From contig CAKJYC010000049.1 of the NCBI GenBank assembly GCA_918244965.1, positions 22,286 through 86,285 of the forward strand: a DNA stretch of 64,000 nt, written 5' to 3'. A program made the translations under genes and the position numbers. The DNA is from Clostridiales bacterium. GTDB taxonomy: Bacteria > Bacillota > Clostridia > Christensenellales > CAG-138. A model generated the notes under the pieces. The model was not told the origin of the DNA. It saw only the letters and a program-made list of their open reading frames with translations, and ran no database searches. Positions 4,349 to 22,002 of the stretch are shown piece by piece. How positions within the stretch are numbered: position 1 is the stretch's first letter; each line of letters opens with the position of its first letter.

Positions 4349-4445
4349 GGGGGATCGTCCTTTCGTTGGATTTCGTACCATGTATCATATCATATCTTCC
4401 GCCAAAAGAAAAGAGCGAAAGCGCCGATCATGCCGTTCGGTCAGA

Positions 4446-4474
4446 TTGACAAACCGCGCGGTTTGCTATACAAT
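4446..4474 (+). promoter_or_regulatory. Sigma-A-type promoter with an embedded 16-bp palindrome
   Basis: TTGACA (4446-4451), 17-nt spacer, TACAAT (4469-4474). The spacer contains the perfect palindrome CAAACCGCGCGGTTTG (4450-4465). Confidence 0.6.
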
Positions 4475-4511
4475 TATACTACTATTCAAATCGGGATCGG
4501 GGCAGGAAACC

Positions 4512-6371: not shown

Positions 6372-7782
6372 AACGCTGTTGAACCTGTCGACCAAGACCT
6401 TTCTCCAGGTCGTCATACTGCTGTTCGTGCTGATGCTTGCGGCGATCGTGCTGACCTATGTGATCCCGAAGGGCGCATTCGGCACGACCGCCGACGGAGA
6501 GCCGGACTTCCTCGCGTATACGCGCATCGAGGATGCGTCGGGCATTCCGGTCTGGAAGGGCCTGCTTGCGCCGTTCCTCGTGTTCGGCTCGGCGAACGGG
6601 CTGGAGCTTCTGATGCTGTCGCTGTTCCTGGTCACGGTGTTCGCCGCGTTTCAGGTCATGAGCGACGTCGGCGGCATCCGCGCGCTGGTCGGGCGGGTCG
6701 CGAGCCGGTTTGAAAAGCGAAAGGGCCTGCTGCTTGCGGCGATCGCGCTGGTGTTCATGGCGTTCGGCGCGTTCCTCGGCCTGTTTGAGGAGATGCTGTC
6801 CATGCTGCCGATCGTCACCGCACTGTGCGTGCTGATCGGCTACGACTCGTTCACGGGCTTCCTCGTCAGCATCATCGCGTGCGGCTTCGGCTTTGCGAGT
6901 GCGATCACCAATCCGTTCACGGTGCTGACGGCGGCGCGCATCATCGACGCGAACCCGATGGAGCATATCTGGTACCGCATCGTCATCTTCGCCGTGATGT
7001 ATCTGCTGCTGCTCGGCTTCGTGTTCCTGTATGTCAGAAAGCTCAAAAAGGATCCGAACAGAAGCCTGACGCTTGCGCACGACGAGGCGCTGCGCGCGGC
7101 GGGGACCGCACAGGACGGCGCACTGTCGCCGGAGAACGAGAAGCGCATCTCGCGGATCTACATCGTGTTCCTGCTTTTGAGCCTTGCGCTGATCATCACC
7201 TGCTCGCTGATCGAATCGCTGCGCGGCGTGACCGTCGTGGTTCTGATCGCATACTTTTTGATCTTCGGCCTGCTCGCGGGCTTTTTGAGCGCAAAGGCCG
7301 TCAAGCCGGTGCTGAAGAGCTTTCTCAAAGGCGTCGTCGGCGCGCTGCCCACGATCGTGTTCATCGCGCTTGCGTCGTCGATCAAGTACATCTTCGACGA
7401 GGGCTCCATCATGCCGACGATCGTGCATTCGATCAACACGCTCGTGTCCGGGCACAGCCCGTTCATCGTCGCGCTTGTGCTGTACGCGATCATTCTTGTG
7501 CTCGAATTCTTCATCTCGTCCTCGACGGCGAAGGCGGTCCTTGTCATGGGCATGCTTGCGGTCGTGAGCGTGCCGCTTTCCAAGCAGATGCTCGTGCTGA
7601 TCTACACCTTCGGCGACGGCTACACGAACGTGCTGTTCCCGACCTCGCCGGTGCTTCTGATCTCGCTGTCGATGATCGGCGTCGACTACTTCAAATGGAT
7701 CAAAAAGAGCGCGCCGCTGTTCCTTATCAACCTTGCGCTGGTCGTGGGCTTCATCGCGCTGGGCATTGCGATCGGATATTGA
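6355..7782 (+). CDS. YfcC/DcuC-family anaerobic carrier (putative basic amino acid or C4 carrier)
   Basis: ~475-aa polytopic protein with the family-typical N-terminus MKKNGKTLLNLSTKTFLQVV. AAGGAG lies 7 nt before ATG 6355. Overlaps the upstream stop. Confidence 0.7.
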   Translation: MKKNGKTLLNLSTKTFLQVVILLFVLMLAAIVLTYVIPKGAFGTTADGEPDFLAYTRIEDASGIPVWKGLLAPFLVFGSANGLELLMLSLFLVTVFAAFQVMSDVGGIRALVGRVASRFEKRKGLLLAAIALVFMAFGAFLGLFEEMLSMLPIVTALCVLIGYDSFTGFLVSIIACGFGFASAITNPFTVLTAARIIDANPMEHIWYRIVIFAVMYLLLLGFVFLYVRKLKKDPNRSLTLAHDEALRAAGTAQDGALSPENEKRISRIYIVFLLLSLALIITCSLIESLRGVTVVVLIAYFLIFGLLAGFLSAKAVKPVLKSFLKGVVGALPTIVFIALASSIKYIFDEGSIMPTIVHSINTLVSGHSPFIVALVLYAIILVLEFFISSSTAKAVLVMGMLAVVSVPLSKQMLVLIYTFGDGYTNVLFPTSPVLLISLSMIGVDYFKWIKKSAPLFLINLALVVGFIALGIAIGY

Positions 7783-7800
7783 TTGCGTACACAGGAATAC

Positions 7801-7846
7801 AAAAAAGCAGGGACCGCTTCGACGGAAGCGGTCCCCGATGTTTTTT
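7801..7846. terminator. Bidirectional intrinsic terminator between convergent genes
   Basis: AAAAAAGCA-GGGACCGCTTC-GACG-GAAGCGGTCCC-CGATG-TTTTTT. Confidence 0.8.
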
Positions 7847-7849
7847 GGC

Positions 7850-8575
7850 TTATTTGCCGAGCTCGCAGCTGATCGCCCGGACGTTTTCGACGGAGTTCAT
7901 AAACGCGGTCAGGTCGGCGATCGTCGTGTCCACGTTGACGCGCATCATCAGATCGCAGTGCGCCGTGCCGTCCTCCAGGAACGTGACCTTGGTCGTGATG
8001 ATCTGCATCTTGTGTTCCTTGACGTACGCCTCAAGCGCTTTGTCAAAGGCGGGCTGATCCTGCACCGCGCAGGAGAGCTTGGCGATGATCATCGTGTCCG
8101 CGCCGAGGATGAACCGGTGCATCAAAAACTGGATCACGGCGACGATCAGCGTGGCGAACGCGCCGATCACATACATGCCCGCGCCGACCGCAAGGCCGAT
8201 GCCAGCCGTCGCCCAGATGCCCGCTGCCGTCGTGAGACCGCGGACCGAGTTGCCGTTGCGGAAGATCATGCCCGCGCCGAGGAACGAAATGCCGCTGATG
8301 ATCTGCGCCGCAAGACGCGCCGGATCGGTGCCGTGCGTGCCGAACAGGAAGCCGTTCGGCGTCGCGAGATCCGCAAACGCGTATTTTGAGACGATCATGG
8401 TCAGCGCCGCCGCACAGCAGACGATGATGTGCGTGCGGATGCCCGCCTCCTTCAGACGCTTCGTGCGCTCAAAGCCGATGCACGCGCCGCAGAAGCACGC
8501 GGCAAGGATGCGCAGAAACAATTCCACATACTCTAAAAGGGAAAACTGATGAAGCATGCTGCCTGCAAGCGACAT
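7850..8575 (-). CDS. mgtC: MgtC/SapB family membrane protein with a C-terminal soluble domain
   Basis: FERTKRLKEAGIRTHIIV...ISGISFLGAGMIF...TAAGIWATAGIGLAVGAG is typical MgtC. Start set at MSLAGSM (8575), downstream of GAAAGG. Confidence 0.8.
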   Translation of the reverse strand: MSLAGSMLHQFSLLEYVELFLRILAACFCGACIGFERTKRLKEAGIRTHIIVCCAAALTMIVSKYAFADLATPNGFLFGTHGTDPARLAAQIISGISFLGAGMIFRNGNSVRGLTTAAGIWATAGIGLAVGAGMYVIGAFATLIVAVIQFLMHRFILGADTMIIAKLSCAVQDQPAFDKALEAYVKEHKMQIITTKVTFLEDGTAHCDLMMRVNVDTTIADLTAFMNSVENVRAISCELGK

Positions 8576-8611
8576 GAAAGCACCGCCTTTCAAATGGGAT
8601 CCGGATCAACA

Positions 8612-8668
8612 GCGTAAACGTTTACGCCCCTGTACATACATCATATCACCGAATACCGGCGTTGTCAA
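8612..8668 (-). promoter_or_regulatory. Promoter plus palindromic operator upstream of mgtC
   Basis: Minus strand: TTGACA (8668-8663), 17 nt, TATGAT (8645-8640), then 12 nt downstream the perfect palindrome GCGTAAACGTTTACGC (8627-8612). Confidence 0.65.
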
Positions 8669-8700
8669 CCGGATTCTGTAAAATGATACGTTCCGGGCGG

Positions 8701-10953
8701 TCAGCGCAGAACGAGCATATAGAGGAAGATCAGTGAGATCGCGCCGACCAGCATCAGAAGCGCGAACGACAGGTTGTCGGTCAGGCGGCGGCCGGTGTCG
8801 CGCAGCGTGCGCCGCGCGCGGTAGGCGGTGATCGCGTAGCGGCGGCCGCCCTGCTCCTCGTGCCCGCGGCGGATCGCGATGCGGTCGATGCGCTTGCCGA
8901 AGCGATAGGGGAGGGACGCGCGCGCCTCGTCCTTTTCGGGCGGCGGGCTGTCACGGTAGACGGTCTTTCTGAGCAGCAGGACCAGCGCATCGACGGCGTC
9001 GGACAGCGCGTGGGATACGACGGTAAAGATGCGGAGCGACCGCTTTGCGGCGGGGGCGAATACGCGGTTTTCGCCGAACTGCGCGGATGCGCCGGATGCG
9101 ATCCGGAACACGCGCTTTGCAGCGGGCGCCGTGACCCGGTTTTCGCCGAACAGCGCGGCAAGCCTGCCGCCGAGCGTCATCACGCCGCGCGCAAGCGGCG
9201 CGCTGACGCGGTTCTCGCCGAACAGCGCGGCAAGCGGACCGAAGATCCCCGGCAGCCATTTTAAGAGTAGCGGGCGGTAAACAAGCTCCTCCAGATCGAG
9301 CCGGGCGGGCCAGCGGTTCACATAGACGCGGACGCCGTTTTCACGCCGCATCAGCAGCGTGCGCACGACGCCGAAGTACAGCGCAAGGCCGATCGCGATC
9401 GAGATAAGCCCGCCCTTGAGATTCTCCCATGAAAGATAGTGCACGGCGTGTTCGAGCGGTCCCGCGTGCAGAAAGTCCGTGCCGAGGTCGGCGATCGCGT
9501 TCATGGAGGCGTTTGCCGTCATGCCCAGCGCGGGCAGAAGGAGCGCGGACAGCAGCAGCGCGATCGCGGTCAACGGCCGCATGTACCGGCGCTTTGCGTC
9601 GAATTCCGCCTGCCGCGTCGGGTGCCGTTCGACAAACAGCGCGACGAACAGCTTGGTCATATACGCGACGGTGATCCCGCCGGACAGCAGAAACAGCCAC
9701 TCGACCGCGCGCATGCCGAACGTGCCCTGACCGAGATGTGCAAGGTGGCCGATGTACTCGACGATGCTCTCATGCAGCAGCGTCTTGCTGATGTAGCCAG
9801 AAAACAGCGGGAACCCGCCGATGCCGAGCGCGCCGCAAAGGAATGCGGTCATCAGCAGCGGCTTTCTGCGGCCGAAGCCGCGGATATCGTTCAGGTTCAG
9901 CGCGTGCAGGTTCATATAAACGACCGCCGCGCACGAGAACAGCACGAGCTTGAACAGCGAATGGTTCATCATGTGCAGCAGCGTGCCGCGCGCGGCAAGC
10001 GCGTTTTCCTCGCCGAGCAGCGTCGTCATGGCGATCCCGACCAGAATGAAGCCGATCTGCGAGATCGACGAGCAGGCGAGCGTGCGCTTCAGATCGACCG
10101 AGAACAGCGCAAGCAGCGCGCCGAGCAGCATGGTGATCGCGCCGAGGATCAGGATGAGCGTTCCCCACGCAGGGTCGTGCCGGAACAGACGGCACGAGAT
10201 CGCGATCACGCCGAAGACGCCGGACTTGGTGAGAAGCCCCGACAGCAGAGCGCTCGCCGGGGCGGGCGCGACCGGATGCGCCTTCGGCAGCCAGATGTGC
10301 AGCGGGAACATGCCTGCCTTTGCGCCGAAGCCGAACAGCACGCAGCCGCCTGCGACGTACAGGATCCGCCTGTTGTCACAGCGCACAGCCGCGTCGTACA
10401 GTCTGTCGATCTCGGCCGTGCCGAGCGTGTGCTGCAGAAGAAACAGCCCGAACAGCGCCGCAAGTCCGCCGATGACCGCGACCGCAAGATAGGTGTTCGC
10501 GGCGCGTTTCGCCGCCTCCGTTTCTTCCTGCACGACCCACGGGTACGAGGTGAACGACATGATCTCAAAGAACACGAGCGCGGTAAACAGATCGCGCGCA
10601 AGGAACACGCCGACCGCCGCGCCGAGCGTCAGCAGGTTGAAGAAATAATAGCGGTTCGCGGTCGTGTAGTGCGAGAAGTATTCGCCGCCGATTAGGGTCG
10701 TCACGGCCCACAGGAACGCGATCACGACGAGATAGACCCGGCGGAAGCCGTCGACAGTCAGGTGCAGACCGAGCCCCGCGACGCCGTCGACGTCCGCGGA
10801 GAGGTCCGGCAGAAACAGCAGGGCCGTGCACAGGCCGAGCTCGATCAGCGTCGTGAGCGCAGCGAGCAGATTGCGCGCGCGAACGGATCGGCGTCCGGCA
10901 AGCCACGTGAGCAGCGCCATGCACATCGGGAAGAGGACCGGCACAAACAGCAT
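8701..10953 (-). CDS. Antiporter-like subunit (MrpA N-domain / NuoL / HycC-like) with a long C-terminal extension and terminal TM anchor
   Basis: GAKAGMFPLHIWLPKAHPVAPAPASALLSG...K motif of proton-conducting membrane transporters. Start at MLFVPVL (ATG 10953), with GGGAGGTG upstream. The C-terminal ~230 aa comprise a 3 x 24-aa repeat, a very basic segment and a final TM helix. Confidence 0.85.
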   Translation of the reverse strand: MLFVPVLFPMCMALLTWLAGRRSVRARNLLAALTTLIELGLCTALLFLPDLSADVDGVAGLGLHLTVDGFRRVYLVVIAFLWAVTTLIGGEYFSHYTTANRYYFFNLLTLGAAVGVFLARDLFTALVFFEIMSFTSYPWVVQEETEAAKRAANTYLAVAVIGGLAALFGLFLLQHTLGTAEIDRLYDAAVRCDNRRILYVAGGCVLFGFGAKAGMFPLHIWLPKAHPVAPAPASALLSGLLTKSGVFGVIAISCRLFRHDPAWGTLILILGAITMLLGALLALFSVDLKRTLACSSISQIGFILVGIAMTTLLGEENALAARGTLLHMMNHSLFKLVLFSCAAVVYMNLHALNLNDIRGFGRRKPLLMTAFLCGALGIGGFPLFSGYISKTLLHESIVEYIGHLAHLGQGTFGMRAVEWLFLLSGGITVAYMTKLFVALFVERHPTRQAEFDAKRRYMRPLTAIALLLSALLLPALGMTANASMNAIADLGTDFLHAGPLEHAVHYLSWENLKGGLISIAIGLALYFGVVRTLLMRRENGVRVYVNRWPARLDLEELVYRPLLLKWLPGIFGPLAALFGENRVSAPLARGVMTLGGRLAALFGENRVTAPAAKRVFRIASGASAQFGENRVFAPAAKRSLRIFTVVSHALSDAVDALVLLLRKTVYRDSPPPEKDEARASLPYRFGKRIDRIAIRRGHEEQGGRRYAITAYRARRTLRDTGRRLTDNLSFALLMLVGAISLIFLYMLVLR
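9040..9245 (-). repeat. Three in-frame 72-bp tandem repeats inside the CDS
   Basis: GG(T/C)T(T/C)TCGCCGAAC starts at 9066, 9138 and 9210 (exact 72-bp period). Encodes (A)LFGENRV(S/T/F)AP.A(R/K)... three times. Confidence 0.9.
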
Positions 10954-10966
10954 CGCATCCACCTCC

Positions 10967-12430
10967 CTAAATGAGCCCGCGCGCGATCGCGTCGGTGACC
11001 TGAAGGATCGGCTGTGCGAACACGCCGCACGCGAGCGTGCCGAGCGCAAGGATGACCATCGGGACGAGCATCTCCCAATCGGCCTCATGCACATCCGACA
11101 GGCCGGACAGGTCCGCCTGCCGGTCGGGGAACCACGCGCGCCGCGCCGGGATCAGCATGTAGATCGCGGTCAGAAGCGCGGAGAAGAGCAGCGCGCCCGC
11201 GCCGACGTAGGCGAGCCCGGAAACGTTCGCGGCGGCGGTGAGCAGATGCCACTTGCTGATAAAGCCGGAAAACGGCGGCAGACCGGTCAGCGCGACGGCC
11301 GAAACGGTGAAGCACGCAAAGGTGACGGGCATCCTCCGGCCGAGCCCGTCAAGCTCGTATACGCCGGTGCGGCCGGTTTTTTTCAGCACCGCGCCCGCGC
11401 AGAAGAACGCGAGGATCTTGATGCACGCATGCGCCGCCATGTGCAGAAGAGACGCGGACAGTCCGTCCGGCGTCAGCAGCACCGCGCCGAACAGCATATA
11501 GGAAAGATTCGCCACGGTCGAGTGCGCGAGACGGCGCTTGAAATGCGGCTCCTTGAGCGCCATCGACGAGCCGTAAACGATCGTGAACGCGGCAAGCAGC
11601 AGCGCGACGGTCTGCGCCCATGTGCCGGAAAGCAGCTCCGTGCCGAAGCAGTAATACGTCAGCCGGATCGCGGCGAACGCGCCCGCCGTAACGACCGCCG
11701 CCGCGTGCAGAAGCGCGGTCACCGGGGTCGGCGCGACCGAGGCGCGGATGAGCCATCCGTGCAGCGGGAAGATCGCGGCCTTGACGCCGAAGCCAAGGAA
11801 CCCGAACAGCCAGAAGAGACAGATCACGTCCCGTCCGAACGGGCGCGTCTCCAGGATGCCGCCCATCGTGAACAGCCCCGTCGCGCCGTTGGTGAGCAGA
11901 AAGACCATCGACGCGAACGCGAACGCCGCGCCGCCGAGCGAGAACAGCAGATACATGCGCGCGGCGCGCACGGCCTCCTTCGTCATCGGGTGCAGCACCA
12001 GCGGCACAGTCGACAGCGTCAGAAGCTCATAGAAGCAGTACATCGTGAACAGGTTGCCAGCCGTCGCCACGCCGAGCGTCGCGCCGTACGCCGCGGTGAA
12101 GAACCCGAAGAACATCGAAAGATGCGCTTCGTCCTTCATGTAGGAGCGCGCGTACAGCACGGTCAGCGGCCACAGCGTCGCCACGATGCCGACAAAGAAC
12201 CGGCCGAGCCCGTCGAGCCGCAGCGTAAACGACAGCTCCGGCGCAAAGCGGATCAGCTCGACCGGACCGGTCACGCCGGACAGCAGCACAGTCCAGCACA
12301 GCGCCGACGTCAGCACCGTGATCCCCAGCGTCGCATCCGCAAGCACGCGGAACGACCGGAGCTTCAGCACATACAGCAGAAGCCCCGATACGAACGGGAT
12401 CAGGATGGAGATCGGCAGCAGGATCTGCAT
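10967..12430 (-). CDS. mrpD: Antiporter-like subunit, MrpD/NuoN/NuoM family
   Basis: GVKAAIFPLHGWLIRASVAPTPVTALLHAAAVV motif, ~14 TM helices. Start at MQILLPI, with AAGGAGG upstream. Confidence 0.85.
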   Translation of the reverse strand: MQILLPISILIPFVSGLLLYVLKLRSFRVLADATLGITVLTSALCWTVLLSGVTGPVELIRFAPELSFTLRLDGLGRFFVGIVATLWPLTVLYARSYMKDEAHLSMFFGFFTAAYGATLGVATAGNLFTMYCFYELLTLSTVPLVLHPMTKEAVRAARMYLLFSLGGAAFAFASMVFLLTNGATGLFTMGGILETRPFGRDVICLFWLFGFLGFGVKAAIFPLHGWLIRASVAPTPVTALLHAAAVVTAGAFAAIRLTYYCFGTELLSGTWAQTVALLLAAFTIVYGSSMALKEPHFKRRLAHSTVANLSYMLFGAVLLTPDGLSASLLHMAAHACIKILAFFCAGAVLKKTGRTGVYELDGLGRRMPVTFACFTVSAVALTGLPPFSGFISKWHLLTAAANVSGLAYVGAGALLFSALLTAIYMLIPARRAWFPDRQADLSGLSDVHEADWEMLVPMVILALGTLACGVFAQPILQVTDAIARGLI

Positions 12431-12440
12431 GGACCCTCCT

Positions 12441-13907
12441 TTACACAAGCGATGCGGACAGCGACATCGTCCAGTCGGTCAACGGCCCCGCAAACAGGCC
12501 GAGCAGCAGCGACACGGCGGCGAGCACGGCGATCGGCAGCCACATCACGGCGGTGCCTTCGTTCGTGCGGTCAAGCGGCGTGAAGTCCTTTCCGGGGAAG
12601 AAGCCACGGACCGTGACCGGCAGCAGATACCCCGCCGTCAGCAGCGCGGACACGAGCAGCACGACCGGTGCAAGCCAGTTCAGCACGGAAAGGCCCGTAT
12701 CGAGCGCGCCGAGCGCAAGATACCATTTGCTGACAAAGCCCGACGCGGGCGGAATGCCGATCAGGCCCAGCGACGCGATCGTGAACGACCACAGCGTGAC
12801 CGGCATGGCTTTTCCGATCCCGCGCAGCTCCGATACGCGCGTCTTTTCGAGGTTGACGATGAACGAGCCTGCGACGAGGAACAGGCAGATCTTGATGCAA
12901 GCGTGGAAGACCACGTGCAGCAGCCCGCCCGCGACGCTCTGCTGCGTCATGCAGAACAGGCCGACGAGGATGTAGGAGATCTGGCTGACCGAGGAGTACG
13001 CGAGCCGCTTTTTGAACACGTCCTCGCGGTACGCCATCATTGAGCCGACGAATACGGTGAGCAGCGCAAGCGAGATCCATGCGATCTGCACCCACGTCCC
13101 GCGCAGAAACGCCGGGCCGACGGTGAAGTACAGAAGCCGCAGGATCGCCAGCACGCCCGCTTTGGTGATGACCGCGGAGAGCACCGCGCTCGCGGGGGCG
13201 GGGGCGACCGGATGCGCCGTCGGCAGCCAGCCGTGCAGCGGGTACATGCCCGCCTTTGCGCCGAATCCGATCACGCCTAAAAACACGGTGATCTCGATCA
13301 GCGTGCGGCTTTCTTCGACGGCGGCGTTCAGCGTGCCGCCCGCCTTGAAATCAAAGGTCGTGGTGAACCGCGAAAGCGTGAAGATCGCCAGAAGCGCCAG
13401 GAATGCGCCCGCGATCGAGTAAAACAGGTATTTCATCGCCGCGCGGATGGACTCCTGCGTGCGGTCGTGCAGCACAAGCGGCATGGACAGCAGCGTCGCC
13501 GCCTCGAAGAAGAGGTACATCGTGATCAGGTTCTCGGACAGGTCCATGCCGACGAGCGCGCCGAGCGAGAACAGCATGAAGGCGTAGAAGCTGTGCTGCC
13601 GCTCGCCGTGCGCCATGTAGCGGGTCGCGTACACGCCCGCAAACAGGAACCCGAACGCACCGATCGACAGAAAGATGCGCGAGACCGCGTCGGTGGCGAG
13701 GCTGACCGTCAGCGCGTCGGTCATCGAGAAGAGGAACACCCTTGCGTCCGGCAAAAACAGGTACCAGAGGCAGAGCGCCGCTTCGACGCCGAGCGCGGCG
13801 ACAAAGACCGCGTTCTGTGCGCGGCGGCCTGCGCGCTTCATCAGCGAAAGGCACACGCCCGCCGCAAGCGGTAAAAGCAAGAGGATGATCAACAGGATTC
13901 GGTTCAT
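12441..13907 (-). CDS. Antiporter-like subunit, MrpD/HyfB-like
   Basis: GAKAGMYPLHGWLPTAHPVAPAPASAVLSAVITKAG. 488 aa. 4-nt overlap with the upstream gene. Confidence 0.85.
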   Translation of the reverse strand: MNRILLIILLLLPLAAGVCLSLMKRAGRRAQNAVFVAALGVEAALCLWYLFLPDARVFLFSMTDALTVSLATDAVSRIFLSIGAFGFLFAGVYATRYMAHGERQHSFYAFMLFSLGALVGMDLSENLITMYLFFEAATLLSMPLVLHDRTQESIRAAMKYLFYSIAGAFLALLAIFTLSRFTTTFDFKAGGTLNAAVEESRTLIEITVFLGVIGFGAKAGMYPLHGWLPTAHPVAPAPASAVLSAVITKAGVLAILRLLYFTVGPAFLRGTWVQIAWISLALLTVFVGSMMAYREDVFKKRLAYSSVSQISYILVGLFCMTQQSVAGGLLHVVFHACIKICLFLVAGSFIVNLEKTRVSELRGIGKAMPVTLWSFTIASLGLIGIPPASGFVSKWYLALGALDTGLSVLNWLAPVVLLVSALLTAGYLLPVTVRGFFPGKDFTPLDRTNEGTAVMWLPIAVLAAVSLLLGLFAGPLTDWTMSLSASLV

Positions 13908-15403
13908 AGCGCCTCCTTCAACAGGATCAGCCCGTGTTCGATCAGGGTCACGACCGGCTTGGCCGCAACGCCGAAGCCGATGTTCATACAGAGAAACGCG
14001 ATCGCCGCGACGGCGAACGGGCGCTGCTCACGCATGCGCACGCGCGGTCCGTCCGGACCGGACGCCGGCGTGTACAGCCGGATCACCACGCGCATGAAGT
14101 ACCAGGTGTTCAGGATCGTGCTGACTGCCAGCACGATCAGCGTCGGGACGATCAGCTTCGGGTTGTCGAACGCGGCAAGCCCGAAGCGGTATTTACTGAC
14201 AAACCCCATCGTCAGGGGAATGCCGATCATGCTGAGCGCGCACGCCGTAAACGTCAGCCCCGCGAGGCGGTTTTTATGCCCCGCGCCGAGCCAGAGCTTG
14301 CGGTCGCGCCCGCCTGCGATCCGGGCGATCTGCGCCGCGGACAGAAACAGCGGCGGCTTGGTGATCGCGTGGGTCAGGATGTGGAACACCGAGGCCAGTA
14401 CGCCGAGCTGCGGCGACAGGCCGAAGCCCATGAAGATGTAGCCGATCTGCGACGCGGACGAGTACGCGATCATGCGGGCGACGTCCGTTTCCCGCGCGGC
14501 GCTGACGCTGCCGACGATCACGCCGATCGCGCCGAGCACGAACAGCACGTTCGATACGCCGCTTTTGTAAAAGACCTCGGTTCCGAACACGCGGAAAATG
14601 ACCCGCAGCAGGAAAAAGATGTATCCCTTCGACACGAGCCCGGACAGGATACCGCCGGACGCGGGCGTTGCGTAGCCGTAGGTATCCGGCATCCAGAAGT
14701 GGAAGGGGAACAGACCGCCCTTGACCGCAAGCCCGACCGTGACAAGACAGATCGAGGTCAGAAGCACCGAGCGGTACTGTCCGCTTTCCCACAGCGTGCC
14801 GATCGCGCGCGAAAGGTCCGGCATCAGAAGATGTCCCGTCACCGCGTACAGCAGGATCAGTCCGAGCAGAAACAGCCCGGAGCCGATCAGCGAGAAAATC
14901 AGGTACCGGATCGACGCAAGCGTCGTGCGGCCGAGCTGCCGGATCATCAAAAGCCCGCACGAGGCGACGGTGCTGATCTCGATAAAGACGTAGCCCGTGA
15001 ACACGTCGTTCGTGCAGCACAGCGCGATCAGCGACGACAGCACCAGTTCGCACATCACGTAGTAGTAGCGGCGCTTACCCTGCTCAAGGTCGTTTTCAAG
15101 ATGCGATCCGCCGCCGAGCAGGCATAAAAGCATGACGGTCGCGAACACGCACAGCAGCAGCGGTTCAAGCGTGCCGAAGAACAGCTCGTTGCCCCACGGA
15201 TGCGGATAGTGTCCCATCCGATAGGTCGTCGCCGCGTCGGAGGAGAGTCCGTATGCGAGCAGCAGGCCGAAGGCGATCGCGACGAGCCCGCACAGCGCAA
15301 GGCACAGCCGCCTTGCGGCCTTTTCCGGCAGGACTGCGCTCACGGCCGAACAGATCAGGCACAGCGCCGCGGCGAACAGGGGAAGGTTGACCGTAAACTC
15401 CAT
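13904..15403 (-). CDS. Antiporter-like subunit, MrpD/NuoN-like
   Basis: AVKGGLFPFHFWMPDTYGYATPASGGILSGLVSKG. 499 aa polytopic. Confidence 0.82.
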   Translation of the reverse strand: MEFTVNLPLFAAALCLICSAVSAVLPEKAARRLCLALCGLVAIAFGLLLAYGLSSDAATTYRMGHYPHPWGNELFFGTLEPLLLCVFATVMLLCLLGGGSHLENDLEQGKRRYYYVMCELVLSSLIALCCTNDVFTGYVFIEISTVASCGLLMIRQLGRTTLASIRYLIFSLIGSGLFLLGLILLYAVTGHLLMPDLSRAIGTLWESGQYRSVLLTSICLVTVGLAVKGGLFPFHFWMPDTYGYATPASGGILSGLVSKGYIFFLLRVIFRVFGTEVFYKSGVSNVLFVLGAIGVIVGSVSAARETDVARMIAYSSASQIGYIFMGFGLSPQLGVLASVFHILTHAITKPPLFLSAAQIARIAGGRDRKLWLGAGHKNRLAGLTFTACALSMIGIPLTMGFVSKYRFGLAAFDNPKLIVPTLIVLAVSTILNTWYFMRVVIRLYTPASGPDGPRVRMREQRPFAVAAIAFLCMNIGFGVAAKPVVTLIEHGLILLKEAL

Positions 15404-15406
15404 AGG

Positions 15407-15793
15407 CTACACCCCGTGTTCCTTCTGTGCCATCTTGTAGATTTCGTCCACGTTCAGGCTGTGATAGCGCCGGTACAGACGGATCGTCAGCGCCAGCAGC
15501 ACCGCCGTGACCGACACCGAAACGACGATGCCGGTGAGCACCAGTCCCGCGGGCAGCGGGTTGACGTAATGCGCCGGATCCGTGTCGTCGCCGCGGAGGA
15601 TCGGAGACAGGCGGTTTTCAATGTAGCCCAAAGACGTCAGCAGCAGATACGCCGCCGTGTCCATGATGTTGAGGCCGATAATCTTTTTGATCAGGTTGCG
15701 GTGCAAAAGCAGCGTGACGAACCCTACCGCGAACAGGATCACCGCCGCGACTGCGAACCGGGAATCCCAGAGCTTCATAAGGAAGTCGTTCAT
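15407..15793 (-). CDS. mrpC: MrpC/MnhC (NuoK-like) subunit
   Basis: 128 aa, 3 TM helices, LNIMDTAAYLLL...PLPAGLVLTGIVVSVS. 4-nt overlap with the upstream gene. Confidence 0.8.
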   Translation of the reverse strand: MNDFLMKLWDSRFAVAAVILFAVGFVTLLLHRNLIKKIIGLNIMDTAAYLLLTSLGYIENRLSPILRGDDTDPAHYVNPLPAGLVLTGIVVSVSVTAVLLALTIRLYRRYHSLNVDEIYKMAQKEHGV

Positions 15794-16695
15794 CCGATCC
15801 GCCCCCTTTCAAACAGGGAATAGAGCCCGTACATCGTGAACGATACGACGACGCCGACCGCAATGTTCAGCGGCAGGATCAGCCCCGCCGACAGGATGCG
15901 GCTCGGCGTGCCGGGCGAAAAGATCGTGTGCAGCCCGTTCGCGCCGCAAAAGAACGAGTACAGCTTCGACACGCTGTAAAAGCACAGCGCCGAGATGCTT
16001 GCGATCCGGAACGTGCGGAAGGTGACGATCCGCTTCATGCGGTGCGGTCCGAACGCGAACGACAGCAGGATCAGTCCCGCGCCGACGATCGCGCCGCCGG
16101 AAAAGCCGCCGCCGGGTCCGAGGTGTCCGGTCAGCATATTGTAGACGCCGAACAGGATCACGATCGGCGCGATCACGCTCGCCGTGACCGTCAGGATCGG
16201 ATCGCGCTCCATCAGGCGCGCGCCGGGATCGTCCGCTTCGGGCGCGTCCGATTGCACAAGCAGCAGGATCAGCACCGCGGTGATCGCCGCGTACAGCACG
16301 TGCGATTCGCCGAGTGTGTCAAACGCGCGATAGTCTAAAATAACGCCCGCGACCGCGTTGACCGCGCCGGTCTCCGCCGTGCCGCTGCCGAGATAGCGGG
16401 CGGTCACCTCGTTGTGCGCCGGATTGTCCGCCGCGCCGTACGGGGGCAGGTCCAGCACCGTCAGAAACAGAAAAACGATCATCACCGTGCCGAGCACGAG
16501 CGCCAGCACGGGGTAGAGACGGTCGAATGCGCGCTCGCCGCGCGTCGCCAGCCGCTCCAGCGGCGCGTCGGGGATCTCCTGCTTCAAGGGCTTCGGAGAA
16601 AGGTCCGGATGCATGTCGCCTGCGGTTTTTTCGGTCAGATCGAACCGGTCTGCGTCCCAGTCGCGGAGACGTTCAAGAAAGCCTGTCTTTTTCAT
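15790..16695 (-). CDS. mrpB: MrpB/MnhB-domain subunit with an N-terminal extension
   Basis: GAVNAVAGVILDYRAFDTLGE is the MnhB signature. 301 aa. Confidence 0.8.
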   Translation of the reverse strand: MKKTGFLERLRDWDADRFDLTEKTAGDMHPDLSPKPLKQEIPDAPLERLATRGERAFDRLYPVLALVLGTVMIVFLFLTVLDLPPYGAADNPAHNEVTARYLGSGTAETGAVNAVAGVILDYRAFDTLGESHVLYAAITAVLILLLVQSDAPEADDPGARLMERDPILTVTASVIAPIVILFGVYNMLTGHLGPGGGFSGGAIVGAGLILLSFAFGPHRMKRIVTFRTFRIASISALCFYSVSKLYSFFCGANGLHTIFSPGTPSRILSAGLILPLNIAVGVVVSFTMYGLYSLFERGRIG

Positions 16696-16942
16696 CGTCC
16701 GCCTTTCTGCGAATGTCGCGCAGCTTTTTCAGGGTGATAAAGAGCAGAATGCCGGATATGCCCGCGCCGACGGCGGCTTCCGTCACGGCGAGGTCCGGCG
16801 CTTTCATCAGCGCCCACAGGATCGACATCAGCACGCTGTACGCCAGAAAGATGACCAGCGACGCAAGCAGGTTTTTCGTGACACAGGTGGAGATCCCGCA
16901 TACGACCAGAAGTCCGAGGAGCAGCACTTCAAAGTATTCCAT
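16673..16942 (-). CDS. DUF4040 / MbhD-like small membrane subunit (equivalent to the MrpA C-terminal piece)
   Basis: 89 aa, 3 TM helices, ...PDLAVTEAAVGAGISGILL.... Position between mrpG and mrpB as in Mbh/archaeal Mrp loci. Confidence 0.65.
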   Translation of the reverse strand: MEYFEVLLLGLLVVCGISTCVTKNLLASLVIFLAYSVLMSILWALMKAPDLAVTEAAVGAGISGILLFITLKKLRDIRRKADDEKDRLS

Positions 16943-17279
16943 CCGCGTTTTCCTCCGTTTCGTCGGGATGCTCCATGTGCGAAAGCGCCGTCTCGTCGGT
17001 GCGCAATTCGAGCCGCGCGACCAGATGCGCCGCGATCGGCGTACCGATCCACAGGAACAGGATCAGAAAGAACAGCTTCCACACAAAAGCCGGTGCCTTT
17101 GCCGCCAGCATCAGCGCCGCCAGCAGAAACAGCGCGCCGAGCGTGTCGATGATCGCCGCGCAATGCATGCGGTTCAGTACGAATTTGAACCGGAACACGC
17201 CGAGGATCGACGTAAAGATCACGAATACGCCCGCCGCCGCCAGCACCGCGCAGAGTGTGAACCGTACCCAGTCAAGCAT
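16929..17279 (-). CDS. mrpG: MrpG/MnhG subunit
   Basis: 116 aa, LGVFRFKFVLNRMHCAAIIDTLG is typical of MnhG. Confidence 0.8.
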   Translation of the reverse strand: MLDWVRFTLCAVLAAAGVFVIFTSILGVFRFKFVLNRMHCAAIIDTLGALFLLAALMLAAKAPAFVWKLFFLILFLWIGTPIAAHLVARLELRTDETALSHMEHPDETEENADGIL

Positions 17280-17571
17280 CGCCGTCCTCCTCCTTTTCCT
17301 TTTTGTGTCCGGCCATATGCGTCTTGACGAGCGCGATCACTGCAAGGAAGCTGATCAGACCGTAGATCAGGCTGACGTCAAGGAGCCAGCTCTCCGAAAA
17401 CAGCAGCGCGATCACGGCGATCGACAGCAGCGACAGCGTGCCGATCATGTTGACGCCCATGATGCGGTCCGCCGTGCGCGGACCCCTGATCGCACGGATC
17501 AGCGCGAACAGGATTCCGGCGCCGAGACAGAACAGGATCACGATAAACAGAATGCGATAGGCTTCATCCAT
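17272..17571 (-). CDS. mrpF: MrpF/MnhF subunit
   Basis: 99 aa, IRAIRGPRTADRIMGVNMIGT is typical of MnhF. Confidence 0.8.
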   Translation of the reverse strand: MDEAYRILFIVILFCLGAGILFALIRAIRGPRTADRIMGVNMIGTLSLLSIAVIALLFSESWLLDVSLIYGLISFLAVIALVKTHMAGHKKEKEEDGDA

Positions 17572-18034
17572 GCCGTTCTCCCTCCATCCGTTTGATCAGC
17601 TTCATCAGCACGCCCGTGTGTATGCCATCGATCATGCTGCGGTCGAGACAGTGCACCGTGAACCGGTCGCCCTCGACGCGAACCGTAATGGTCCCCGGCG
17701 TCAGCGTGATCGAATTCGCCAGCAGAAACCGTCCGAAGCGGGTTTTGAGGTCCGTGCGGAAGATCACAAGGCTCTGGCGCAGCTTCTGTTTTCGCCGGAG
17801 GATGATCCGGATGACGCGCAGGTTCGCGCGGATCATTTCAAAGATCAGCACCCCCGCAAACGCGAGCAGCAGCGGAACGCGCAAAAGGTACTGAAGGTCC
17901 TGCTTCGGCGTGTAGCCCAAAAGCGCGTACATCAGAAGTCCCGCCGCGACGATGATCGCCGCGCCGAACAGCAGGATCTCCCATGTGACGGCGCCGTTCA
18001 GGGCCAGCCAGAGGCAAAAGAGCAGCAGGTACAT
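17564..18034 (-). CDS. mrpE: MrpE/MnhE subunit
   Basis: 156 aa, ...LANSITLTPGTITV... is typical of MnhE. First gene of the E-F-G-B'-B-C-D series. Confidence 0.8.
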   Translation of the reverse strand: MYLLLFCLWLALNGAVTWEILLFGAAIIVAAGLLMYALLGYTPKQDLQYLLRVPLLLAFAGVLIFEMIRANLRVIRIILRRKQKLRQSLVIFRTDLKTRFGRFLLANSITLTPGTITVRVEGDRFTVHCLDRSMIDGIHTGVLMKLIKRMEGERHG

Positions 18035-18056
18035 AAGCGCGTCCTTTTATGATTCG

Positions 18057-19088
18057 TTATTCCGTCCGGATATCCGCCCAGACGGCGTTGTGGTCCGAAA
18101 GCTCGCAGAGGTCCGAACGCCGCAGCGGGGAGTCGGGGGACGCCCAGCCGCAGTCCGAAAGCAGCGTGGACGTGAGGCCGTGTCCGGTGCACACGGCGCC
18201 GCGGCCGAGGATCCAGTCAAGCTGCAGATGCAGCACGCCGTCGCCGGTCGGCCGTCTGCGCGTGGAGACGCCCGCGCCGTTGAAGGAGCGGAAGTCATAG
18301 CCGTAGTCCCTCGCGCAGGCAAACAGCGGTTCAAGCGGGACCGGATCGACCACGATCCCGTCCGCCTGCTGCCGTTCATACGCAGCAAGCGCCGCCGCCT
18401 CGCCGTAATCGAAGCCGTTCGGGTTCAGATCGCCGCCGATCAGTACCGGCAGATCGCCGAACATCGCATCAGCGTGTTCGAGGATCGCCCGCATCTGCGC
18501 TGCGCGCGCAGCGGGGGAGGTGCGGTTTTCTAGATGCACGCAGACTGCGCCGAGCCTGCGTCCCGCGACGTCGAGCTCGCAGAACACCGCAACGCGGCCG
18601 CCGATCCGTTTTTGTTCGTCGAAGTACCAGTTATACCCCTCCGGCACGTACAGCGCTTCCGCACGCACGATCGGCCAGCGCGAAAGGATCGCGTTGCCCT
18701 CGTATCCCTTTTCGTCGCGCGGGTCGACGAGCTCGATGAATTCGAGCGCATAGGCATAGTTGAAGCCGAGCCGTTCGGCCAGCATGCGCGACACATCGGT
18801 GTTGCCGCTTCGGAGCGTGCCGTCGTCCAGCTCGTTGCCGAACAGCAGATCGGCGCTTCGGAGCGCGGGGCATTCGGACAGAAACGAAACGATCTCCCTT
18901 GCGCGGTACCCGTGCTCCACGTTGAACACCGCCGCGCGGATCGTCTCCGGCGTCCCTGCCGGCGCAGGGAACAGGTTCTGCAGTTCGGGCGCGGCAAACG
19001 CGGCAATGCGCCGCATGACGGCGGTCTGCCCGTCTTTCGGTACGTCTGCGCCGAGCTGTATTCGCTCTGTGTAGGGGATCGCGTTCAT
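18057..19088 (-). CDS. Endonuclease/exonuclease/phosphatase (EEP) family protein
   Basis: ...AAVFNVEHG..., GNELD, ...LIGGDLN..., terminal SDHNAVWADI are EEP catalytic motifs. Start set at MNAIPYT (19088), downstream of GGGAG. Only 22 nt upstream of mrpE. Confidence 0.75.
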   Translation of the reverse strand: MNAIPYTERIQLGADVPKDGQTAVMRRIAAFAAPELQNLFPAPAGTPETIRAAVFNVEHGYRAREIVSFLSECPALRSADLLFGNELDDGTLRSGNTDVSRMLAERLGFNYAYALEFIELVDPRDEKGYEGNAILSRWPIVRAEALYVPEGYNWYFDEQKRIGGRVAVFCELDVAGRRLGAVCVHLENRTSPAARAAQMRAILEHADAMFGDLPVLIGGDLNPNGFDYGEAAALAAYERQQADGIVVDPVPLEPLFACARDYGYDFRSFNGAGVSTRRRPTGDGVLHLQLDWILGRGAVCTGHGLTSTLLSDCGWASPDSPLRRSDLCELSDHNAVWADIRTE

Positions 19089-19223
19089 CTTTCTTTGCTC
19101 CCGACTTTTATCCATAATAGTATAGCACGGCGGAGACCGTTTGAAAAGAGGCAAAACGGCAGGCGCACAGCGCGGCACGGCTTGAAATTATACCGAAACG
19201 CGTATATTTTTTCATAAATGCGA

Positions 19224-19282
19224 TTGACAACCGGCGCGTCAAGTGGTAAGATTAGACCGATAGGAGCGCAAACGTTTGCGCT
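19224..19282 (+). promoter_or_regulatory. Promoter plus palindromic operator upstream of the HAD-ABC operon
   Basis: TTGACA (19224-19229), 17 nt, TAAGAT (19247-19252), then the perfect 18-bp palindrome AGCGCAAACGTTTGCGCT (19265-19282). Confidence 0.7.
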
Positions 19283-19318
19283 TGCAGAAACAGACCACTT
19301 TTGACGGGGGACGGAGAA

Positions 19319-20077
19319 ATGATCAAAGCAGTCATGTTTGATATGGGCGGCACGCTCGAAGACCTGTATTCCGATGAAAAAAACGACAGGGCGACTGCGT
19401 ACGCGCTGTATGAGATCCTGAAAAAGCACGGGATCGAGGTCCCGTACGAGGCCGAGCCGCTGTGGAAGATCGTCGGCGCGGGCATTCAGGCGTATAAGAA
19501 GGATTCCGAGCGGACGCTGCGCGAGCTGAAGCCGGAGGAGATCTGGCCGGACTGGGGCTTTAAGGATATTCCGGTCGACCGCGAAAAGCTGATCGCCTGC
19601 AGCGAGGAGATCGCCCACATGTGGGAGACGACCTTCTATGACCGCAAGCTCCGCGAGCACGGCGCCGAGATGCTGAAGGGCCTCAAGGAGGACCTCGGCA
19701 TGTATGTTTCGGTCGTCAGCAACACGGGCAGCCTCTTCCAGGTGTTCGATACGCTGAAGAAATACGGCGTGCGGCAGTATTTCGACAACATTACGCTTTC
19801 CTCCGTCACCGGCTACCGCAAGCCGCATCCGAACGTCTTCCGCGTCGCGCTGAACCAGGCGAACCTCGATCCGTCCGAATGCGCGTTCGTCGGCGACACG
19901 CTTTCGCGCGATGTGGTCGGTCCGCGTAAAATGGGCTTTGGCCGCGTGTTCAAGATCAATTCATTTCTGACCAAGCAAAAGGATATCGGCAAATACGACG
20001 TCGCGCCGGATTATGAGATCACGGACATCTACGACGTCTACACGCTCCTCAAAAAGGAGCGCGAGGAGCAGCGGTAA
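19319..20077 (+). CDS. HAD-IA-like hydrolase, same subfamily as the four tandem copies at 52-55 kb
   Basis: Motif I FDMGGTL, motif II VVSN, YRKPHPNVF, motif IV VGDTLSRDV. Start at MIKAVMFD, with GGAG upstream. Confidence 0.8.
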   Translation: MIKAVMFDMGGTLEDLYSDEKNDRATAYALYEILKKHGIEVPYEAEPLWKIVGAGIQAYKKDSERTLRELKPEEIWPDWGFKDIPVDREKLIACSEEIAHMWETTFYDRKLREHGAEMLKGLKEDLGMYVSVVSNTGSLFQVFDTLKKYGVRQYFDNITLSSVTGYRKPHPNVFRVALNQANLDPSECAFVGDTLSRDVVGPRKMGFGRVFKINSFLTKQKDIGKYDVAPDYEITDIYDVYTLLKKEREEQR

Positions 20078-20109
20078 CCGCTTGAGAGCATTTCCGAGGG
20101 AGGTATACA

Positions 20110-22002
20110 ATGGCAAAGAAAGGATGGAAACGTCCGCCGATGACGTGGAAACGGTTCAAGAACCTGTTTCTGAACGTGGTCGGCAATCCCTTTAACGTGA
20201 TCGTCGCCATCACGCTGATCATTCTGTTCATCTTCATCATCATTCCGCTGTTGACGATGATCCAGAATACGTTCGTGACGACGCGCGGCGCGCTGCGGGA
20301 GGTTCGGAAGGTGTATCCCGACGCACAGGTCGGCAGCTATACGCTGTATTCCTGGCGCTATCTGTTCGGCGCGGAGAACTTCGTCTCGTCGGGCGACATG
20401 GGACTCAAGGGCACGCTGATCTACGTCAACCTTCTGGAGCCGCTGTTCCACTCGCTGACGATCGGCTTCTTCGTCACGATCATCTCGGTCCCGCTCGGCG
20501 CGCTGATGGCGTGGCTGATGGTGCGTACCGACATTCCGTGCAAGGGCCTTCTGTCCTCGCTGATCCTGATCCCGTACATGATCCCGTCGTGGTGCAAGGC
20601 GCTGTCGTGGCTGACGGTCTTCCGAACGCCGGAGTACGGCGGGTTCAACGGCCTTTTGACCGGCATGGGGATCGGGGTGCCGGACTGGCTTGCTTACGGC
20701 CCGATCGCGATCATCGTCGTCATGACGATGCACTATTACGCGTTTTCCTATATCATGGTTTCCGGCGCGCTGCGGTCCATCAACTCCGAGCTTGAGGAGA
20801 TGGGCGAGATCCAGGGCGCGAACAAGGCGCAGATCCTCAAAAACATCACGCTGCCGCTGGTGCTGCCGTCGATTCTGTCGGCAACGATCATGACGATCAG
20901 TAAGTCGATCGGCACCTACGGCGTTGCGGCGCGTCTCGGCGAGCCTGCGGGCTATCACGTGCTGGCGACCAAGATGAAATGGTTCCTCGGCCGTTCCTCC
21001 ACCGAGGCGGTCGGCTACATCCTTTCGATCGTCATGATCGCGCTTGCCGCCGGTACGATCTTCATCAACCAGCGGCTGATCGGTAAGCGCAAATCCTACG
21101 CGACGATCGGCGGCAAGGGCACGCGGTCGAATCCGATCCCGCTCGGCGGCGCAAAGTGGCCGATGCTGACGCTTCTGGTCATCTTTCTGGTCGTGGCCAT
21201 GTTCATGCCGCTGTTCTTCCTTGTCATGGAGTCGTTCCAGATCATACCGGGCAACGGTTACGGCGCGGACAACCTGACGCTGTACGCATGGATCGGGCAG
21301 CTGGAGAACGCGCCGAATACGGCGTTCGACCGCGACGGTCTGTTCTCTCCGCATAACGAGCTGTTCTGGCGCTCGTTGTGGAATACCGTCAAGCTCTCCC
21401 TGATCGCATCGGTCATCACGGCGGTGTTCGGACAGTTCTTCGGCTACATCACGACGCGCGGCCGCGGCAAGTGGTACGGCAACGCGGTGGAGCAGCTGAT
21501 CTTCATACCGTACCTGATGAGCGGCGTCGCGTTCTCGGCGATCTACTACGCGATGTTCAGTCAGCCGCATCTGTGGGGACTGATCCCGTCGCTGACGGGC
21601 ACGTTCATGCTGATATTGCTGGTGTCGATCGTCAAGCACTTCCCGTTCGCCAGCCGGTCCGGCTCGTCGAACATGATGCAGATCTCGACGGAGCTTGAGG
21701 AGGCGGCGACGATCAACGGCGCGGGCTTCTGGCGGCGCATCGGCAGCATCATCATTCCACTGGCGCGGCACGGCTTCCTCTCGGGCTTCCTGCTTTCCTT
21801 TATCAGTATTGCAAAGGAATTGGACCTGATCGCCATCCTGATCACGAGCGAGGAGAATTACACGCTGTCGTTCCTCTCGTTCACGTATTCGGAAACGATG
21901 CCGCAGGCGGGCGACGCGATCTGCATCATCATCATCGCGTTCATCCTGATCACGAACAAGATCGCGGATAAGTTCGGCGGCAACGTCAGCAAGAGCATGT
22001 AA
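20110..22002 (+). CDS. ABC importer permease, fused two-domain (FbpB/ThiP-like topology)
   Basis: 630 aa, about 12 TM helices, two tandem permease halves each with an EAA-like loop. GGGAGG RBS. Confidence 0.8.
   Translation: MAKKGWKRPPMTWKRFKNLFLNVVGNPFNVIVAITLIILFIFIIIPLLTMIQNTFVTTRGALREVRKVYPDAQVGSYTLYSWRYLFGAENFVSSGDMGLKGTLIYVNLLEPLFHSLTIGFFVTIISVPLGALMAWLMVRTDIPCKGLLSSLILIPYMIPSWCKALSWLTVFRTPEYGGFNGLLTGMGIGVPDWLAYGPIAIIVVMTMHYYAFSYIMVSGALRSINSELEEMGEIQGANKAQILKNITLPLVLPSILSATIMTISKSIGTYGVAARLGEPAGYHVLATKMKWFLGRSSTEAVGYILSIVMIALAAGTIFINQRLIGKRKSYATIGGKGTRSNPIPLGGAKWPMLTLLVIFLVVAMFMPLFFLVMESFQIIPGNGYGADNLTLYAWIGQLENAPNTAFDRDGLFSPHNELFWRSLWNTVKLSLIASVITAVFGQFFGYITTRGRGKWYGNAVEQLIFIPYLMSGVAFSAIYYAMFSQPHLWGLIPSLTGTFMLILLVSIVKHFPFASRSGSSNMMQISTELEEAATINGAGFWRRIGSIIIPLARHGFLSGFLLSFISIAKELDLIAILITSEENYTLSFLSFTYSETMPQAGDAICIIIIAFILITNKIADKFGGNVSKSM

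Follow-up and report, generated by a model that had tools for sequence, protein, structure and literature searches.

A predicted stand-alone Mrp-type cation/proton antiporter with four antiporter-like subunits, encoded by a ten-gene operon of a Clostridiales bacterium

Introduction

What kind of machine results when the parts of an Mrp antiporter are combined with four antiporter-like subunits and no redox module? This question is raised by a ten-gene operon on the minus strand, at positions 8701–18034, of a 64,000-nucleotide stretch of DNA (hereafter the window) from a Clostridiales bacterium (assembly GCA_918244965.1, contig CAKJYC010000049.1). A complex is stated to have one to three antiporter-like subunits, with four known only from unusual complex I variants (PMC7419157). 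The original prediction, made from the window alone, had left two options: an extended cation/proton antiporter with more channels, or the membrane arm of a complex that has its peripheral module encoded at another site. It is debated how energy passes down the antiporter-like chain of Mrp, membrane-bound hydrogenase (MBH) and complex I, and how many ions each subunit contributes; a redox-free four-subunit complex would provide a simple test.

Using family models, alignments with solved structures, ortholog comparisons and structure modelling, we propose, with a probability of about three in four, that the whole operon specifies a single secondary-active antiporter of the Mrp type (CPA3), which exchanges cations for protons, stands alone, follows the archaeal "group 3" design and has its arm lengthened to four proton-channel subunits. 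This proposal, which favours the first of the two options, is supported by four lines of evidence. First, the operon accounts for all Mrp functions. Second, the channel residues are kept in four large subunits. Third, carboxylates of the Mrp cation path, with one exception in MrpF, are kept in the small ones. Fourth, the gene order is conserved across bacterial families.

The operon and its four large subunits

All ten genes are complete, start with ATG and are preceded by a ribosome-binding site of the GGAGG/AAGGA type. In order of transcription (all on the minus strand), they encode MrpE (17564–18034, 156 amino acids; PF01899 MNHE, 3.5e-31), MrpF (17272–17571, 99 amino acids; PF04066 MrpF_PhaF, 1.8e-11), MrpG (16929–17279, 116 amino acids; PF03334 PhaG_MnhG, 3.1e-18), an MbhD-like (DUF4040) protein corresponding to the first part of the MrpA C-terminal domain (16673–16942, 89 amino acids; PF13244, 2.7e-19), an MbsE-like fusion protein (15790–16695, 301 amino acids; PF20501 (MbhE) at residues 87–145 and PF04039 (MnhB) at residues 167–288), the NuoK-like MrpC (15407–15793, 128 amino acids; PF00420 Oxidored_q2, 7.6e-22) and four large antiporter-like proteins, which we call D1 (13904–15403, 499 amino acids; PF00361, 8e-44), D2 (12441–13907, 488 amino acids; PF00361, 2.9e-59), D3 (10967–12430, 487 amino acids with its ATG at 12430; PF00361 and PF00662) and D4 (8701–10953, 750 amino acids with its ATG at 10953; NCBIfam HyfB as best match, 2.9e-75). 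The ten open reading frames (ORFs), their order and the sizes of the four large proteins had been correctly predicted, and the families were confirmed by Pfam. The order, which reads E-F-G-MbhD-fusion(MbhE+MnhB)-C-D1-D2-D3-D4, had been assigned to the archaeal type and not to the mrpABCDEFG of Bacillus; it corresponds to mrpEFGBB'CD of Pyrococcus furiosus. The predicted overlap of 4–23 nucleotides at the junctions holds for six of them (8, 8, 14, 23, 4 and 4 nucleotides), and the three others are gaps of 3, 10 and 13 nucleotides. The cluster is uninterrupted, and its Pfam and NCBIfam matches cover all seven Mrp functions (A-N and A-C, B, C, D, E, F, G). None of the ten proteins reached an NCBIfam equivalog cut-off, and hence they are without a curated model. 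No Rfam family was found at 7000–20500.

The Proton_antipo_M domain (PF00361) is present in all four large subunits, with values of 8e-44 to 2.9e-59. Classified with hidden Markov models, these subunits resemble, in gene order, NuoN, NuoM, NuoL and HyfB. D1 scores higher with the NuoN subfamily model (175 bits) than with that of NuoM (156 bits) and may be described as NuoN/MrpD-like; D2 is NuoM/MbhH-like (NuoM model, 192 bits); D3 is NuoL/MrpA-N-like (NuoL model, 185 bits), possesses the additional Proton_antipo_N domain (PF00662) and aligns with the mycobacterial NuoL (8e9g_L) via its ...PTPVSALIHAATMVTAG... segment, and keeps the histidine of transmembrane helix 8 (TM8); and D4 is HyfB/MbhH-like, with MbhH as its best sequence match among solved structures (1.1e-41). 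[quoted passage not shown]

The residues of the proton channels were mapped with the key-residue set of the 2.2 Å structure from Bacillus pseudofirmus (PMC9568556), i.e. the TM5 glutamate, the TM7 lysine, the TM8 lysine or histidine, the TM11 histidine-lysine-phenylalanine triad and the TM12 lysine, and their conservation was checked in orthologs from 28–40 species loci. All seven positions are invariant in D1 (E142, K228, K259, H345, K349, F353 and K404; 38/38), in D3 (E135, K217, H242, H334, K338, F342 and K393; 41/41) and in D4 (E130, K212, K243, H331, K335, F339 and K390 in the numbering of the 750-residue protein; 29/29). In D2, six of them (K218, K249, H335, K339, F343 and K394) occur in 38/38 sequences and the TM5 glutamate E135 in 37/38. 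Hence, the TM5 glutamate and the TM7 and TM12 lysines, which the original prediction had singled out for such a check, are kept near-universally in all four paralogs. The TM8 residue is a lysine (MrpD/NuoM-type) in D1, D2 and D4, and a histidine (NuoL/MrpA-type) in D3. The motif AHP.AP.P.SA.LS....K.G, which had been assigned to three large subunits, occurs in its strict form in D2 and D4 only; D1 has a loose version of it with the TM8 lysine, and D3 has the TM8 histidine.

The four paralogs share 25–37% pairwise identity, which suggests that the duplications are old. Each of them has its own counterpart as the best match across loci, i.e. a one-to-one orthology, at overall identities of 41–82%. 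D1–D4 are old subunits that are each separately conserved, and not decaying copies. The view that they are degenerate duplicates was rejected, since none of the four shows more than a single deviation at its channel positions. That two or more of the large subunits have ceased to conduct protons and act as structural spacers, formally conceivable for any duplicated subunits, is very improbable in view of the same invariance at modest overall identity and of the existence of a separate orthologous group for each paralog.

The D4 tail and its anchor

Several of the sequence searches with D4 used a 751-residue query that began one codon early (Ala47), and residue numbers from them are one higher than those of the 750-amino-acid protein. 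The AlphaFold2 model of D4 (77 homologs; mean predicted local distance difference test score, pLDDT, 84.4; predicted template modelling score 0.77) has a confident core. It is followed by a tail of six consecutive amphipathic helices (8776–9294, minus strand; about 134 helical residues), modelled at residues 555–580, 585–604, 609–626, 633–665, 682–696 and 706–727. At the very end lies a terminal anchor resembling TM16 (8707–8766, minus strand), which coincides with a hydropathy peak of 2.72 at residues 732–750 and a modelled helix at residues 731–750, and which carries a NLSFALLML motif conserved among homologs. Foldseek aligned the D4 model over its full length with chains that bear the lateral helix HL, namely MrpA (7QRU_A), NuoL, NdhF and HycC. 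We read the D4 tail, on the basis of this model, as a probable HL-like clamp with a TM16-like anchor.

In known NuoL/MrpA-N subunits, the TM8 histidine, helix HL and TM16 occur together. Here these features are split: D3 has the TM8 histidine and ends after the core (487 amino acids), and D4 has the tail and anchor together with a TM8 lysine.

The tail constitutes a narrow sequence family (147 clusters at 50% identity); it is C-terminal in every full-length match, in proteins of about 600–800 amino acids. Within it lie three 24-residue FGENR repeats (about 9040–9245, minus strand; in the 751-residue query, their first residues are 579, 603 and 627). The number of copies is 1–4 among close homologs (676–765 amino acids) and zero in most orthologs from Lachnospiraceae and Erysipelotrichaceae. 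As the D4 orthologs with zero to four copies all come from operons with four large subunits, the idea that the repeat is a strict ruler with one unit per subunit was rejected. Even the shortest tails span about 120 residues from core to anchor.

The small subunits and the cation path

The best matches of the small subunits among solved structures are MbsB for MrpF, MbsD and MbhD for the MbhD-like protein, MbsE (6u8y_E, 7.9e-20) for the fusion protein, and MbsG and MbhG for MrpC. By these matches, the small subunits are classed as MBH/MBS-type. MbsE is itself a fusion of the MbhE+MbhF type (PMC8415708). Judging from the domain matches, the MbhE-like part of the fusion protein corresponds to the rest of the MrpA C-terminal domain, and the other part to MnhB/MrpB.

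Many of the charged residues of these subunits are strictly conserved. First, H128 and the TLTPGT motif of MrpE are invariant (36 sequences), as are R37, D45, K68, H85 and E91 of MrpG (36/36; H39 in 34/36). Second, E55 of the MbhD-like protein, which aligns with E69 of MbhD, the counterpart of MrpA E706, is invariant (32/32). Third, the fusion protein has invariant D126 and E130, in a DTLGE motif, and an invariant GGGFSGG motif. Fourth, D45 of MrpC, which aligns with MbhG D37 at the position of His40 in Bacillus-type MrpC, is invariant (38/38). Fifth, D35 of MrpF (in an ADR motif; the equivalent of D29f) and D65 are invariant. Steiner and Sazanov proposed that carboxylates operate in the binding and release of the cation (PMC7419157), and the equivalents kept here are E55 of the MbhD-like protein, D45 of MrpC, D126/E130 of the fusion protein and E142 of D1. 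Of the essential cation-path carboxylates of Anoxybacillus flavithermus Mrp (E706, D792 and E796 of MrpA, and D29 and D35 of MrpF), the equivalents of E706 and D29f and the DTLGE pair are invariant here, and the equivalent of D35f, considered below, is an asparagine in 35/35 sequences.

The search for a redox partner

The genome (2.33 Mb) is 95.3% complete and comprises 95 contigs. No match to NuoD (PF00346), NuoB (PF01058) or NuoH (PF00146) was found in this 95.3%-complete genome, in searches for which the controls were positive in 11 of 14 reference genomes. Thus, the prediction that no NuoB/D/H-like gene adjoins the operon holds for its neighbourhood as well as for the whole genome, and the search for orphan genes of this kind, proposed along with it, found none. 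The only PF00361 genes of the genome are those of D1–D4. Of ten other Clostridia genomes with a D4 ortholog, nine are without PF00346, among them two that are assembled in one and in three contigs; in the remaining genome, a NuoD-like gene lies on a contig other than that of the operon. No conserved flanking gene was found beyond close relatives among the compared loci, and two candidates for a conserved accessory neighbour were rejected: an MgtC-family gene lies beside the operon only in close kin (five loci), and a gene of the endonuclease/exonuclease/phosphatase (EEP) family in three loci. From these gene searches, the complex appears to be a stand-alone one with no redox partner.

Distribution and conservation

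The homologs of D4 fall into thousands of clusters. Among the best 120, identity to it is 57–92% and length 676–765 amino acids, and the sole match with a named source bears the label "complex I subunit 5 family protein". When species-representative genomes were scanned with a pattern, 44 loci were obtained, which belong, among others, to Oscillospiraceae (Faecousia), Lachnospiraceae, Erysipelotrichaceae (Solobacterium) and Limiplasma. Cultured among them are Schaedlerella arabinosiphila DSM 106076, Lactonifactor longoviformis DSM 17459 and strain M18-1. The ten-gene order is kept in every one of these loci with sufficient flank; the short MbhD-like ORF fell below the BLAST threshold in two loci. 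A D4 ortholog (E ≤ 1e-100) occurred in 13 of 300 genomes sampled evenly across the class, and in none of the 11 that belong to the order from which the window comes, which points to a patchy distribution. The carriers are gut and rumen organisms. The layout is widespread and not rare, and it is common in gut and rumen Clostridia.

Flanking genes and host context

Upstream of mrpE and on the same strand, an EEP-family ORF (18057–19178, minus strand; weak PF03372 match, no NCBIfam match), which is common to the two closest loci only, ends 22 nucleotides before the operon. No promoter-like site was found between this ORF and mrpE, and promoter-like sites occur at about 19119–19215; hence, in the window's lineage, the transcript may start further upstream and the EEP-family gene may be co-transcribed.

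Directly downstream of the operon, a gene for an MgtC/SapB-family membrane protein (7850–8593, minus strand) has its own near-consensus promoter-like site (8668–8640) and is followed by a strong terminator-like hairpin (7837–7808). It lies beside the operon in four related loci as well, and not in distant ones. Beyond MgtC, on the opposite strand, are genes for a DcuC-family C4-dicarboxylate carrier (6328–7782, plus strand) and for a fusion of VTT/DedA and acyltransferase domains (3861–6371, plus strand).

Elsewhere in the genome, RnfD is encoded, and the only rotor-ring gene specifies a 156-residue double-hairpin V-type K subunit (contig C50, L049 1471–1941). The best match of this K subunit among solved structures is NtpK of the Enterococcus hirae Na+-ATPase (5.8e-37), with which it is identical at the aligned positions L61, T64, Q65, Q110 and E139, which we take to be the Na+ ligands of the NtpK ring. 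From RnfD and the NtpK-like K subunit, the host probably runs a sodium cycle.

Proposed mechanism and alternatives

In our proposal, MrpE, MrpF, MrpG and the fusion protein's MnhB part make up the cation module, most likely for Na+, and the MbhD-like protein, the MbhE part of the fusion and the NuoK-like MrpC make up the connecting module. E55 of the MbhD-like protein, D45 of MrpC, D126/E130 of the fusion protein and E142 of D1 are the coupling carboxylates. The physical order of the subunits would follow the gene order, i.e. MrpC, D1, D2, D3 and D4. The long segmented D4 tail would pass back across D3, D2 and D1, with its terminal helix anchored near the small subunits, like HL of NuoL/MrpA. 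In line with current Mrp models (PMC7419157, PMC9568556), protons from the four channels would move through a central axis of charged residues to the D1/MrpC/MbhD site, where a bound cation would be driven out. The number of H+ per cation may exceed that of the two-channel Mrp, for which a proton:cation ratio of roughly 2 has been suggested (PMC7419157), and a higher ratio would make the exchange strongly driven by the membrane potential. Given the probable sodium cycle of the host, the complex would link this cycle to cytoplasmic pH and Na+ homeostasis.

Several points weigh against this proposal. First, codon 41 of mrpF (17449–17451) specifies an asparagine, in the window's protein and in all 34 orthologs (35/35), at the position aligned with Asp35f/Asp38 of MbsB, MbhB and both Bacillus-type MrpF chains. 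Asp35f was termed invariably conserved, in the characterised Mrp as well as in MBH and MBS, and essential for activity in Anoxybacillus Mrp, where D35L is inactive, and an Asp-to-Asn change at this position has mild effects in B. subtilis (PMC7419157). Being family-wide, Asn41 means that the path of cation entry may differ here, and we treat it as a family-specific change of this path and not as a loss of function. Second, MrpC is devoid of the two histidines that bind cations in Bacillus-type Mrp and has an MBH-type aspartate instead. Third, we infer from sequence the transported cation, the direction and the stoichiometry, as well as the order of the subunits and the course of the tail; the tail has a low confidence in the D4 model (pLDDT 40–80). 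Fourth, in a gut, where the pH is near-neutral or acidic, the benefit of a strongly electrogenic importer of H+ is not evident.

The most probable alternative is that the complex works in the opposite direction, with Na+ entering down a gradient generated by Rnf and the V-type ATPase and H+ being pushed out, thereby protecting a fermenting cell from acid, as has been proposed for the stand-alone Mrp of P. furiosus (PMC8415708). At low pH, this group 3 Mrp was reported to take up Na+ and expel H+ (PMC8415708). Rnf and a rotor subunit of the Na+ type, similar to NtpK, are encoded by the host, and the small subunits are nearest to those of MBH and MBS, which are Na+-coupled. However, four proton channels per cation site would carry a net positive charge inward, so that the export of H+ would oppose the membrane potential, the P. 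furiosus model has one antiporter-like subunit and not four, and the sequence cannot tell the direction of transport. We consider this alternative unlikely.

It is less probable still that the complex transports another substrate than Na+, such as K+, Ca2+ or NH4+, or confers bile-salt tolerance, in which case MrpF Asn41 would reflect the change. The replacement of Asp35f in all 35 sequences, the gut and rumen habitats of the carriers, and the reports of Mrp complexes with Ca2+/H+ activity, K+ activity or bile-salt resistance (PMC5703873) are consistent with it, but the site residues match those proposed for Na+ in MBH (E69d, D37g and N34g), and the mildness of the Asp-to-Asn change in B. subtilis argues in the same direction (PMC7419157).

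Finally, the second of the original options, in which the operon specifies the membrane arm of an enzyme that is driven by redox reactions (MBH-, Hyf- or complex-I-like) and has its peripheral module elsewhere, would fit the MBH-like gene order, the HyfB/D/F-like matches and the draft state of the genome, but it is very improbable and largely refuted by the lack of NuoD, NuoB and NuoH homologues in the 95.3%-complete genome, of NuoD in nine of ten other carrier genomes and of any neighbour conserved beyond close kin, and by the fact that no docking site is known without a NuoH/MbhM-like subunit.

Within the preferred proposal of a stand-alone antiporter, we tentatively suggest, as a possibility that we hold rather doubtful, that all four channels conduct H+, in a "low-gear" antiporter moving three or four H+ per cation, with a His-switch entry subunit inside the chain and a clamp of variable length on a terminal subunit of the lysine type. 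An inner His-switch subunit combined with a clamp on another, lysine-type subunit has not been seen in any solved Mrp or complex I. If true, this arrangement would offer a natural system in which long-range coupling can be tested against the number of antiporter-like subunits, in carriers that are culturable (S. arabinosiphila and L. longoviformis). In those gut and rumen Clostridia that seemingly depend on a sodium cycle, the complex may be a contributor, widespread and as yet unstudied, to the homeostasis of ions and pH.

Comparison with known systems

Group 3 Mrp (Swartz 2005; Ito 2017; Haja 2021) were defined by the lack of mrpA, an mrpD that is sometimes multicopy and an irregular gene order (PMC8415708; PMC5703873). 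Likewise, the present operon has no full-length mrpA, several mrpD-type genes and an order other than ABCDEFG. No subunit joins an antiporter-like core to an MrpB-like C-terminal domain, as the parts of MrpA are spread over the D4, MbhD-like and fusion genes, and the order is reversed, all of which separates the operon from groups 1 and 2, in which a single mrpA product unites the antiporter-like core, helix HL and the MrpB-like domain and the order is A(B)CDEFG. The original prediction had staked its case on this architecture not being an already characterised Mrp subtype and on the extra paralogs not having lost their key charged residues: the architecture does fit the loose group 3, for which we found no experimental study of a four-subunit Mrp in the literature, and the residues are not lost. 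An annotation "MrpEFGBBBCD, MrpDD" appears, uncommented, in a paper on metagenome-assembled genomes (PMC6305446).

The nearest studied relative is the stand-alone mrpEFGBB'CD of P. furiosus, an Na+-coupled Mrp with one antiporter-like subunit (Haja et al. 2021, PMC8415708). Both have the order E-F-G-B-B'-C-D, an MrpA split into small MbhD/MbhE-type pieces, small subunits nearest to MBH/MBS chains and no redox module. They differ in that P. furiosus Mrp has a single antiporter-like subunit and no lateral-helix subunit, whereas the present complex has four, the last with a tail of about 200 residues and an anchor, as well as an MbhE+MnhB fusion (as in MbsE), the Asn for Asp replacement in MrpF and a bacterial host.

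With the group 1 Mrp of B. pseudofirmus and A. flavithermus (mrpABCDEFG; 7QRU, 6Z16), the complex shares the seven functional parts, the channel residues and most of the carboxylates, and D4 can be structurally aligned over its full length with MrpA of 7QRU. In contrast, the gene order is different, MrpA is distributed over three genes, the antiporter-like subunits outnumber those of group 1 by two, the TM8 histidine (on D3) and helix HL (on D4, with its TM8 lysine) lie on distinct subunits, an MBH-type aspartate occupies the His37/His40 site of MrpC, and Asp35 of MrpF is replaced by an asparagine.

The membrane arms of MBH, MBS and Escherichia coli Hyf/Hyc (6CFW, 6U8Y, 7Z0S) provide the best sequence matches of most subunits; Hyf has three subunits of the antiporter-like type along with a NuoK-like one, and HyfB is the best family match of D4. 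Unlike these systems, and unlike complex I, the present one belongs to a genome without MbhM/NuoH-, MbhJ/NuoB- and MbhL/NuoD-like subunits, and it has the Mrp subunits E, F and G that are lacking in Hyf.

A last comparison concerns the complex I variants with a fourth antiporter-like subunit, reportedly described by Chadwick et al. in 2018 (cited in PMC7419157) and said to be redox-driven. The complex encoded here resembles them by its four antiporter-like subunits and by the longer clamp to be expected on the terminal subunit, and differs from them by being without a redox module. In Mrp and complex I, the clamp and the TM8 histidine reside on the same terminal subunit, whereas here they lie on different proteins. 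Together, these comparisons lead us to rate the complex as an uncharacterised variant of a known machine.

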